DNA of 64,000 nt from Escherichia phage pEC-M719-6WT.2. Under the pieces are notes generated by a model. The model was not told the origin of the DNA and ran no database searches. It saw nothing but the letters and a program-made list of their open reading frames with translations. Position numbers and translations under genes: made by a program. Numbering within the stretch: position 1 is the stretch's first letter; each line of letters starts with the position of its first letter. Where the stretch lies: the sequence record OQ845958.1, one strand, 5' to 3'. Below are positions 20,776 to 22,183 of this stretch, piece after piece.

Positions 20776-21123
20776 ATGACCAAACAACATGGATTAAATA
20801 TGGAATTACCAATTAAAGCAGTAGGTGAATATATTATTTTGGTTTCTGAGCCAAAGCAAGCCGGTGATGAAGAAACTACGGCATCAGGTATCGTTATCGG
20901 AAAACTCCATCAGGGTGAAATCCCGGAGATGTGTGAAGTATTTTCGGTTGGTCCGGATGTTCCTGAAGGATTCTGCGAAGTAGGTGATTTGACTCCTCTT
21001 CCGGTTGGCAAGATTGCAAACGTTCCACATCCTCTGGTTGCTCTGGGGCTTAAGCAGGCTAAAGAAGTTAAGCAAAAATTTGTGACCTGTCATTATAAAG
21101 CTGTTCCTTGTCTTTATAAGTAA
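20776..21123 (+). CDS. 31: co-chaperonin (GroES-like) for capsid folding, gp31
   Basis: 115 aa; AVGEYxILVSEPxQAGDEE, [17 protein letters not shown], VTCHYKAxPCLYK match T4 gp31 from memory. True start could be the second ATG at 20800. Confidence 0.9.
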
Positions 21124-21294
21124 AATTAGCGTTATAAATAATAATATGGATTGGTTGATGTCATACAGAGCTTTGCTGGTGTATGGGGTTAGCTAATCCT
21201 AAACGGTGGACTACAACTGAGAGACTTGCCGAAAGGAAGTGAAATTCAGAAGAACGTGTCCACCAAATATTCACCTCATATTGAGGCTTCTAAA

Positions 21295-21549
21295 ATGTCT
21301 TTAAACAAACAATTACAACACGCTCTCGAACTGCAACGCACTGCATGGAATAACGGTCACGAAAACTACGGCGCATCTATTGATGTTGAAGCCGAAGCAC
21401 TGGAAATTCTGCAGTATTTCAAACATCTTAACCCGGTTCAAACCGACCTTCGCGCAGTGCTCGAAGCAAAAGATGAACTGAAATTTGCTAAGCCGCTGGC
21501 ATCTGCTGCCCGTAAAGCTGTTCGCCATTTTGTCGTAACCCTGAAGTAA
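21295..21549 (+). CDS. rIII: rIII-like protein (by position and size only; internal start of ORF-track 21226-21549)
   Basis: 84 aa from ATG with GAGG ribosome-binding site; T4 rIII is a small protein lying next to gene 31. No sequence memory to confirm. Confidence 0.35.
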   Translation: MSLNKQLQHALELQRTAWNNGHENYGASIDVEAEALEILQYFKHLNPVQTDLRAVLEAKDELKFAKPLASAARKAVRHFVVTLK

Positions 21550-21947
21550 GCTGTAGGTGATTCGCTACCTTAGTGCGGCTAGAAAATCGAGGAGCCGTCG
21601 AACCGTCTGATTAATGATTTGCGAATCATTATAGTTTTAAGACCCCGGCAGTTTTACGGTGTACCTCTTGAATGTTATTCTTATAGCGGCAAGTGCATGC
21701 TACCCCGAGGTGATGGCCAATCGGGAGTACGCCTCAAGGCCTATATATCCATCAGTATATATCTTATCCTCGAGAAATCGAACCCGGAACCTTTAAGCTA
21801 ACGGTGTGCAACAGATAAGAGCTATAAGGTATGATGACGAGGTTTATGGTTATCCTGTCGTTAAATATCCGAAACCTAATGTTCCCTTCGAGGGCTTGCG
21901 CAGGCAATGCCAATAAGTCCTGCATTCTATTTTAAAGAGAATTTAAT
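21550..21947. other. ORF-free, relatively GC-rich, hairpin-dense intergenic segment; candidate structured RNA or regulatory region
   Basis: No ORF of 60 aa or more that looks real on either strand; hairpins CGGCT..AGCCG and AATGATTtgcgAATCATT; composition differs from flanking coding DNA. Confidence 0.3.
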
Positions 21948-22109
21948 ATGGCTAAGAAAGAAGTTAAAGTTGTTGATGGCTCCTCCAAACGCGCTGGTTA
22001 CAAGCGTGCGTCCAACAAGCGAATCAATCAGGTGACTGATAAACTTCAGGCTCGTGCTCGTGCGGTATTGCGTGCCGATGCAGCTTGCTTTGGTAAGCCG
22101 AAAGCATAA
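21948..22109 (+). CDS. small basic protein (53 aa), not in ORF track
   Basis: ATG ... TAA frame encoding MAKKEVKVVDGSSKRAGYKRASNKRINQVTDKLQARARAVLRADAACFGKPKA; followed directly by a strong terminator. Confidence 0.4.
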   Translation: MAKKEVKVVDGSSKRAGYKRASNKRINQVTDKLQARARAVLRADAACFGKPKA

Positions 22110-22112
22110 GTT

Positions 22113-22143
22113 CAGGGACTCTTCGGAGTCCCTTTTTTATTTT
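22113..22143 (+). terminator. intrinsic terminator (GGGACUC-UUCG-GAGUCCC + U-tract)
   Basis: agggactcttcggagtcccttttttatttt. Confidence 0.7.
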
Positions 22144-22153
22144 CCATAAAGGG

Positions 22154-22183
22154 GTTTACAACAGGGTTGGTCCAGTGCATAAT
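22154..22183 (+). promoter_or_regulatory. early promoter cassette (GTTTACAA ... CATAAT)
   Basis: ggggtttacaa, 17 nt, cataatgattccatactgagtta; leader nearly identical to the cassette at 46373-46420. Confidence 0.5.

Follow-up and report, generated by a model that had tools for sequence, protein, structure and literature searches.

A ToxI-like repeat and a conserved multi-helix RNA between rIII and 30.9 of T4-like phages: a putative RNA counter-defence island

In bacteria carrying ToxIN, infection stops host transcription, the labile antitoxin RNA ToxI decays, the RNase ToxN is freed and the infected cell dies (PMC5772629); phage phiTE counters this with phage-made ToxI look-alikes that restore the inhibition of ToxN (PMC3475682). 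Bacterial toxI loci are arrays of 1.9-5.6 tandem repeats (PMC3401426), and the unit of Pectobacterium atrosepticum, 36 nt long, reads AGGTGATTTGCTACCTTTAAGTGCAGCTAGAAATTC (PMC4010927; primer in PMC5772629). In the pseudo-ToxI of phiTE the U9-A25 pair of the ToxI core helix is replaced by the compensatory pair U9C/A25G, and the bases C27 and U28, both required for ToxN binding, are absent (PMC3475682). Here we analyse a 64,000-nt stretch of Escherichia phage pEC-M719-6WT.2 (OQ845958.1), hereafter the window, and within it the gap between genes rIII and 30.9 (positions 21550-21947), which carries a ToxI-like repeat, designated A0, and four further RNA modules, A1, B, C1 and C2 (Table 1).

Counter-defence of T4-like phages has been studied almost entirely via proteins, and the group includes many therapeutic candidates against Escherichia coli, Klebsiella, Shigella and Enterobacter. 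The reading that we consider probable, if by no means certain, is that the gap represents a co-transcribed RNA counter-defence island, in which A0 would act as a ToxN-occupying mimic, B as a second trans-acting RNA, and C1 and C2 as the leader of 30.9.

An orphan ToxI-like repeat behind rIII

A0 and the ToxI unit of P. atrosepticum are identical at 31 of 34 bases, and the local alignment score of 25 compares with a maximum of 17 in 200 shuffles. The whole gap was searched with BLAST against 50,697 phage records and also against 72,556 plasmids and 5,426 E. coli genomes. In the plasmid and E. coli sets, similarity was confined to 21554-21592 (query positions 5-43) and always fell on toxI repeat arrays, which were carried by pECA1039-like P. 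atrosepticum, E. coli, E. albertii, Lelliottia and Hafnia. The P. atrosepticum plasmid was matched at 13 places; in E. coli pU90-1 the array comprises 3.5 toxI repeats and a terminator, and a toxin annotated as ToxN/AbiQ is encoded ~150 nt downstream of it. Sequence comparison establishes that A0 and toxI are homologous.

Units of the toxIN antitoxin family measure about 31-46 nt. With ToxI of pECA1039 and its E. coli homologues, A0 shares the ~36-nt unit, the core helix, C27-U28-A29 and a 3' motif of the AA^AU type. All four pairs of the pseudoknot core helix, in which positions 8-11 pair with 23-26 (the position of U9-A25 among them), are standard in A0, and the helix is kept across true ToxI repeats and all phage variants, with T-A exchanged for C-G and G-C for A-T; the latter swap occurs in the diverged Tequatrovirus/SP18/S16 form of A0. 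A0 itself carries the U9C and A25G pair change, and it retains CTA at aligned positions 27-29, including the ToxN-contact bases C27 and U28. An extra 3' A would preserve the cleavage context, as in phiTE (PMC3475682); the 3' side reads GAAAATC.

In contrast to ToxI, A0 is one repeat instead of a tandem array: Tandem Repeats Finder returned 0 rows, and the window contains one exact copy. A0 also differs in a second loop shorter by 2 nt, in a 5' side (GAAGTAAGCTGT) without the ToxN cleavage motif AA^AU, in the absence of an adjacent toxN gene and in its place inside a predicted phage mRNA, right behind the stop codon of rIII; its neighbours are rIII and 30.9, with which it is co-directional. Since it is a single copy and has no toxN neighbour, A0 is to be regarded as an orphan antitoxin mimic, not as a toxin-antitoxin locus.

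The pseudo-ToxI of phiTE (Blower et al. 2012, PMC3475682) is likewise a phage-borne orphan with U9C/A25G and the extra 3' A. Both presumably share the same mode of action, namely the occupation of ToxN. They differ in that phiTE, which is rV5-like, carries 1.5 repeats with GAC at positions 27-29 and can escape only after these repeats have expanded, whereas A0 is present in a T4-like phage as one complete repeat with CUA, fixed after rIII in many genera and situated beside other RNA modules.

Scanning of IMG/VR with a degenerate ToxI pattern recovered phiTE (142,349 bp, 1.5 repeats), which served as the positive control, and T4-like contigs including the A0 locus. Single ToxI-like repeats, mostly with CTAGAAA, were also seen in nine T4-unrelated contigs of 5-90 kb (L153, L154 and L160-L166); in L153 the repeat comes with a TTGACA-17-TATAAT promoter of its own and is accompanied by a second, diverged repeat, and in L161 a terminator is located directly 3' of it. 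Further repeats of this type were noted in Salmonella phage 7-11/SE131, Vibrio phage JSF12 and Salinivibrio phage CW02. From the sequences, antitoxin mimicry is suggested to be widespread and unannotated in phages.

The bacterial ToxI 36-mer matches 197 phage records, 163 of which are Klebsiella phages; those inspected were T4-like, with the match at the A0 position. In GenBank the phiTE match is labelled pseudo-ToxI, and the T4-like matches are unannotated or given as hypothetical proteins. No report of a ToxI-like repeat in T4-like phages was found in the searchable literature. A pseudo-ToxI is of a known kind, and it is its fixed, unannotated presence in T4-like phages that we did not find described in that literature.

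Structure, covariation and distribution of module B

Module B is an RNA of ~150 nt with seven helices, the structure of which was obtained with RNAalifold and manual refinement. The covariance model built on it, R1, has a single match in the window (185 bits, E 3e-39). The closing stem P1 joins P2, P4 and P5 in a four-way junction without linker bases. A conserved internal loop connects P2 (GGC/GCC) to P3, which is a long irregular hairpin. P4 also forms a hairpin, and P5 surrounds both P6, whose loop is usually of the GNRA type, and P7. Invariant or near-invariant segments are GGCAAGKGCAUG (from 21688), GGCCUAU, GGAMCC and GCUAACGGUGUGCAAC; the invariant 18-mer is given in Table 1.

Across 24 distinct sequences, 95.6% of cells pair as the model requires, as against 26-44% in slid controls; 32 of the 47 pairs changed on both sides, and none of 500 shuffles reached any of the five measures. 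The figure of 32/47 leans towards the structure, because the alignment was fitted to the model; in an independent MAFFT alignment 24 of the 47 pairs changed on both sides. The G.U pairs in B are compatible with the plus strand only.

BLAST detected B in 410 phage records at 85-100% identity and with sharp edges, always on the same strand as the flanking genes. The genera and groups concerned include Tequatro-, Gapriver-, Dhaka-, Jiaoda-, Marfa-, Karam-, Moon-, Kanagawa- and Muldoonvirus, and the covariance model placed B 3' of rIII in 15 of 35 rIII-bearing IMG/VR loci. Diverged copies were found at a second locus, in Yersinia phage JC221 (110 bits) and Klebsiella phage phi1_146002 (100 bits), where B follows uvsY and precedes the convergent uvsW within a long non-coding tract ending in a terminator; they contribute further compensatory changes, in P5 and in P7. 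B behaves as a self-contained unit that is present, absent or replaced, relocates and is exchanged between genera. Comparative sequence analysis establishes that B is a real RNA which folds and moves independently, that its sequence is strongly constrained and that it is not tied to 30.9.

It should be added that the uvsY tracts (JC221, L091, 1100-1935; phi1_146002, L150, 1490-1830) also contain hairpins resembling C2 (GTACCCYTTG.GGG) and C1 (hairpin followed by CGTWAAAA), that their terminator is bidirectional and that the small coding sequences annotated there look spurious. The JC221 tract also holds a ToxI-like repeat, after B.

None of the 4227 models of Rfam 15, riboswitches, ribozymes, small RNAs and group I introns among them, matched the window, B alone or the JC221 locus, either at gathering thresholds or at E <= 10. 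The original prediction, a note made from the letters of the window alone, had found no tRNA cloverleaf in the gap; ARAGORN likewise returned 0 tRNA or tmRNA genes in the whole window, and a tRNA identity of B was rejected, since its four-way junction has no linker bases and no T-arm or D-arm features are present. T4 rnaC and rnaD (species 1 and 2 RNA) are comparable to B as structured, co-transcribed phage RNAs of 120-140 nt with no function assigned. They differ from it in their location in the tRNA cluster and, in the case of rnaC, in a tRNA-like 3' domain that B does not have; homology was discarded, as only chance 8-14-mers were shared.

B further resembles riboswitch aptamers and Rfam orphan motifs in its closed P1 of free sequence, its multi-helix junction and its invariant unpaired bases, and departs from them in that it matches no Rfam model, lacks a conserved expression platform and does not always precede the same gene. 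Much the same description (size, closed multi-helix fold, variable closing stem, invariant junction and phage intergenic site) is typical of small ribozymes, and B might be a self-cleaving or otherwise catalytic RNA cutting the rIII-30.9 transcript. Against this, no Rfam ribozyme model matches B, even at E <= 10, and no conserved candidate cleavage site was identified in it, which makes a catalytic role very unlikely in our opinion.

Several resemblances were considered and failed on architecture or on conservation among homologues: hairpin ribozyme (GUAUAU), SAM-I (CUUAUC...GAUAAG, GCAAC), C/D box (AUGAUGA), retron non-coding RNA and RegA operator. H-type pseudoknots (GAGGYG/CGCCUC and GGCC/GGCC) were also considered, and P3 was preferred after compensatory changes were seen in L058, JC221 and EcL8g. 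Antisense targets of the invariant loops, sought within the window, amounted to chance 9-10-mers only. A host origin of B was rejected, as no similarity of the gap to E. coli genomes or plasmids was found beyond A0. The invariant 18-mer was absent from 185,579 bacterial species genomes except for three unrelated metagenome-assembled genomes, whose matches we take to be chance. No description of B was found in the searchable literature; matching no described family that we found, B is considered a new RNA family.

The original prediction had described the gap as free of open reading frames (ORFs), enriched in GC and rich in stable hairpins. The first part stands: mechanically called ORFs in 21550-21947 are of 60 aa at most and belong to no Pfam or PHROG family. 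The other two do not. The GC content of the gap, 0.437, falls at the 77th percentile of the window (mean 0.41 +/- 0.035) and below both flanking genes (rIII 0.455, 30.9 0.488), and whole-gap folding does not differ from that of shuffled sequence (minimum free energy z -0.15 on the plus strand, +0.47 on the minus strand). What makes the region special is conservation across genera together with covariation, a signal invisible in a single sequence; GC and hairpin stability were no real signal, and the ToxI repeat in the first 34 nt had been overlooked. The suggestion of a structured noncoding RNA is supported on the plus strand, where the comparison with related phages revealed both conservation and compensatory changes (in B, A1 and C1).

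Automatic annotation calls ORFs in the gap in UPEC07, U115 and several Klebsiella phages, and some GenBank records list products of 60, 53 or 34 aa as hypothetical proteins, so that a small-protein-coding role has to be weighed. These ORFs are without Pfam or PHROG family and unconserved among relatives; the ORF from the ATGATG of C1 stops after 2-34 codons, depending on the phage, and no conserved ORF starts there among the variants compared. Every homologue of B has stops in all six frames, its variable positions are spread over the codon phases as 25/23/20, i.e. without three-base periodicity, and the substitutions in helices are compensatory. No conserved short ORF of coding type was found, and a protein-coding gap appears hardly credible; the comparisons establish its non-coding status.

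Mosaic architecture of the gap and a probable leader of 30.9

In the phage set, the BLAST search with the gap matched ~1,000 T4-like genomes in sharp-edged blocks of 90-100% identity across genera, and in distant genera the flanks of these blocks were unmatched at the same sensitivity. The rIII-30.9 intergenic regions of 13 phages were aligned, and 46 distinct versions, 126-422 nt long, were then mapped. The gap proved to be a mosaic of A0, A1, B, C1 and C2, the presence and order of which vary among the 46 versions. All five modules, in the order A0-A1-B-C1-C2, are present in the window; T4/RB32 have C1 and C2 alone; RB69 and VR7 have A1, an alternative hairpin of 52 nt, and C1 and C2; the Klebsiella phages of the Jiaoda and Slopek types have C1-A0-B-C2; and in Moon- and Karamvirus B lies immediately 3' of rIII. 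The A1/C1 slot is polymorphic: it can contain B, the 52-nt hairpin or nothing.

The 52-nt hairpin (...CGTCAGAAAAAGGTTATCTGTCTAAG...) was seen between GAATGT and TATGATG in VR7, RB69, L122, L123 and L125. Its stem shows a compensatory change, CAGA/TCTG to CAGC/GCTG, and its loop resembles that of C1, of which it may, judging from sequence, be a paralogue. The idea that it is a deletion remnant of B was dropped, as it is a distinct hairpin with a compensatory change of its own.

Table 1. Coordinates of the gap, its modules and neighbouring features in the window
Feature	Position	Strand	Remarks
gp31	20776-21123	+	upstream of rIII; order cd ... gp31, rIII, gap, 30.9, terminator, 30.8
sigma-70-like promoter site	21113-21142		upstream of rIII
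T4 late-promoter consensus TATAAATA	21133-21140		upstream of rIII
rIII, lysis-inhibition accessory protein	21295-21549	+	PHROG phrog_1457, E 2.4e-42
gap	21550-21947		398 nt between rIII stop (21549) and 30.9 start (21948)
A0, single ToxI-family antitoxin repeat (pseudo-ToxI), AGGTGATTCGCTACCTTAGTGCGGCTAGAAAATC	21555-21588	+	ToxI homology
A1, branched irregular hairpin	21589-21675	+	12-sequence alignment, modest covariation
B, ~150-nt 7-helix RNA	21678-21830	+	covariance model R1, covariation
P1, closing stem of B	21679-21687 with 21821-21829		5-9 bp, sequence freely variable
invariant 18-mer of B, GCUAACGGUGUGCAACAG	21797-21814		identical in all but one copy examined, at least nine genera
C1	21830-21876	+	TATGATG, hairpin GAC-g-AGG ... 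CCT-GTC with conserved loop TTTATGGTTAT, then CGTTAAATATCCGAAACC
C2, proximal leader of 30.9	21877-21947	+	three hairpins
C2 hairpin CCCTTCGAGGG	21884-21894	+
C2 hairpin GCAGG..CCTGC	21900-21923	+
C2 hairpin ATTCT..AGAAT	21924-21942	+	pairs with 30.9 Shine-Dalgarno region
gene 30.9, small basic protein	21948-22109	+	PHROG phrog_1427, E 2.9e-26
intrinsic terminator	22114-22143	+	8-bp stem (22114-22133), 5 G-C pairs, then TTTTTTATTTT (T run)

A1, present in Gapriver-, Tequatro- and Mosigvirus with a mean identity of 97% (12 distinct sequences), is composed of an outer helix (AGGAG/CTCTT), middle helices (CCGT/ACGG and AACCGTC/GGCAGTT) and the apical hairpin AATGATT-tgcg-AATCATT (21613-21630). 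Nearly all of its variation falls in the middle helix and is compensatory, with four pairs changed on both sides; 97.9% of cells pair, versus 21-58% in slid controls. Three hairpins had been named in the original prediction, and they fared differently. The apical hairpin of A1 is invariant in all relatives that have this module; CGGCT..AGCCG exists in the window, where it spans the boundary of the ToxI-like unit and A1, and is lost in the SP18/Tequatrovirus variant; GAGGTG..CGCCTC competes with P3 of B, and covariation backs P3.

The basal stem of C1 is common to 12 diverse variants; 5 of them show swaps at two of the three pairs (UA 7, AU 4, GC 1; and CG 7, GC 3, UA 2). The loop and tail sequences of C1 are conserved. 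In Klebsiella phages and in L159, C1 is located upstream of A0. The reading of A0 or C1 as a promoter (sigma-70, T4 early GTTTAC, MotA box or late TATAAATA) was rejected, since the promoter scan showed no site and the covarying helices argue for RNA.

The layout of C2 is kept, as judged by eye, with other sequences, such as CCTCTTAGAGGG in PS2 and GGGAGC...GCTCCC in Klebsiella phages. The second hairpin of C2 is enlarged in Klebsiella phage 15882-6-1 (L006, ~1340-1440), PG7, Merlin and PS2, with GGGAGC...GCTCCC around repeated CGAAAGAA-like motifs (CCGAAAGAACTGTCGAAAGAAGTTGAACCTCGGAAGAACG); on sequence grounds, these A-rich repeats might be another nuclease decoy.

The proposal of a regulated leader, made as an alternative in the original prediction, holds for the 3' end of the gap, which is leader-like for 30.9 and has a hairpin over its Shine-Dalgarno region. 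The pairing of this hairpin would also fit a wider explanation, in which the gap in its entirety would serve 30.9 as a single long 5' leader acting in cis, with B as a riboswitch-type or protein-binding sensor that controls translation of 30.9 via the downstream hairpins. The closed, aptamer-like fold of B, its invariant junction bases and its position upstream of 30.9 in most genera agree with that explanation. However, in JC221 and phi1_146002 B is situated after uvsY, in JC221 with no 30.9-like ORF downstream, T4/RB32, RB69 and VR7 keep 30.9 with C1 and C2 and do without B, and the start codon lies 50-140 nt beyond B, with other modules in between. The sequence of P1 is free to vary, whereas that of the downstream modules stays constant, and no conserved alternative pairing exists, from which it follows that B has no conserved expression platform. 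A single cis leader is accordingly held to be rather improbable.

The shuffling, swapping and loss of modules among close relatives, the exchangeable A1/C1 slot, the position inside an mRNA and the unremarkable overall folding energy could instead be accommodated if the modules were passive mRNA architecture, i.e. processing sites, stability elements, insulators or recombination cassettes in a hyperplastic stretch, without a specific target, and the ToxI similarity a captured relic. Yet invariant loops and junctions and a near-invariant 18-mer in at least nine genera exceed the needs of a stability hairpin, compensatory change has preserved the fold of A0, which also keeps the ToxN-contact bases, and ToxI-like repeats are found singly in unrelated phages as well, in some cases together with a promoter or terminator of their own. 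T4-type phages have mobile promoter-early/stem-loop cassettes, in which an early sigma-70-type promoter is joined to a conserved stem-loop. The stem-loops of the gap are without a sigma-70 promoter, and the identification with such cassettes was rejected, no promoter-like site being present inside 21550-21947. Overall, we consider passive architecture unlikely, and counter-defence remains the preferred reading.

Proposed counter-defence role and genomic setting

No sigma-70-type promoter or terminator was found inside 21550-21947 by the promoter and terminator scan, the sole terminator of the unit being that after 30.9, which by its sequence appears to close a unit with rIII as the upstream and 30.9 as the downstream gene. 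Lacking an internal promoter or terminator, the gap should be internal to the rIII-30.9 transcript and be transcribed from the rIII promoters, as far as sequence indicates. In T4, rIII is transcribed from promoters of the early, middle and late classes (PMC9409239).

In the proposed mechanism, the gap would be transcribed within the rIII-30.9 mRNA and fold into a series of RNA modules, each independent of the others. Expressed from the rIII promoters, A0 would presumably be available throughout infection and could bind and occupy ToxN, keeping it inactive after the host ToxI has decayed. Given such expression and the retained ToxN-contact bases, a decoy is the best explanation of A0, and we infer its antitoxic activity by analogy with the known systems. 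B would be a trans-acting accessory RNA recognising a specific protein or small ligand, plausibly in counter-defence. A0 precedes B in the window and in Klebsiella phages, and in JC221 the A0-like repeat follows it; this neighbourhood and the accessory distribution of B make counter-defence its most plausible theme, and we likewise infer a specific partner for its action in trans. C1 and C2 would form the leader of 30.9 and mask its ribosome-binding site in a hairpin.

A number of points weigh against this proposal. With one repeat, a shortened loop and no AA^AU motif on its 5' side, A0 may be weak or specific to certain ToxN variants; pairs of ToxI and ToxN are specific, so that it may suit only some hosts' ToxN. 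The 1.5 repeats of wild-type phiTE were unprotective and needed expansion, though with GAC and not CUA at positions 27-29 (PMC3475682). Moreover, T4-like phages already carry a protein inhibitor of ToxN, TifA (PMC9391042, PMC10853763). TifA shares with A0 the presumed target and the phage group, and differs in being a protein, the gene for which lies at another site of the genome; A0 would achieve the same by means of RNA. What ties B to defence is its neighbourhood and its accessory behaviour alone; it occurs without A0 in Moon- and Karamvirus and is absent beside the ToxI-like repeats of the non-T4 phages.

A more far-reaching view, which we regard as possible and rather doubtful, is that B is the first of a new class of phage RNAs, a compact, portable four-way-junction cassette of T4-like phages of Enterobacteria, neutralising a host immune component by catalysis or as a decoy or sponge that captures a defence protein or a signalling nucleotide, and that the gap is the first multi-RNA counter-defence island in a virulent phage.

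If A0 works, antitoxin RNA mimicry would be common in nature beyond the laboratory case of phiTE, and its presence would be a testable predictor of phages that escape ToxIN-bearing hosts; hundreds of genomes carry the look-alike, unannotated, at a fixed locus. B ranks with the most conserved non-coding sequences of this phage group and offers a target in the search for a new interaction of an RNA with a protein or ligand. In many GenBank records the RNAs of the gap are wrongly annotated as hypothetical proteins.

The phage of the window is a T4-like member of the VR7/SP18/UPEC07 group (Gaprivervirus), with 99.8% identity to UPEC07 over 1.15 kb. At the corresponding locus, rIII is also annotated in the UPEC07, SP18 and VR7 records, and gp30.9 in SP18 and VR7. 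Upstream, the stretch between gp31 and rIII (21124-21294) is a second non-coding tract of ~170 nt. Downstream, in the region 22114-22183, a promoter-like TTTACA-17-CATAAT, T4-early-like, was noted within GGTTTACA, 3' of the strong 30.9 terminator and before 30.8. In SP18 (L002, 1538-1888) and phage 212 an extra gene, 30.6A, absent in the window, is inserted between 30.9 and 30.8, a further sign of a plastic neighbourhood. Finally, in PQ341120.1, OL362041.1, PP445228.1 and OR539220.1 the 53-aa gp30.9 homologue or the gap is labelled '1,4-alpha-glucan branching enzyme', which is almost certainly an annotation artefact.

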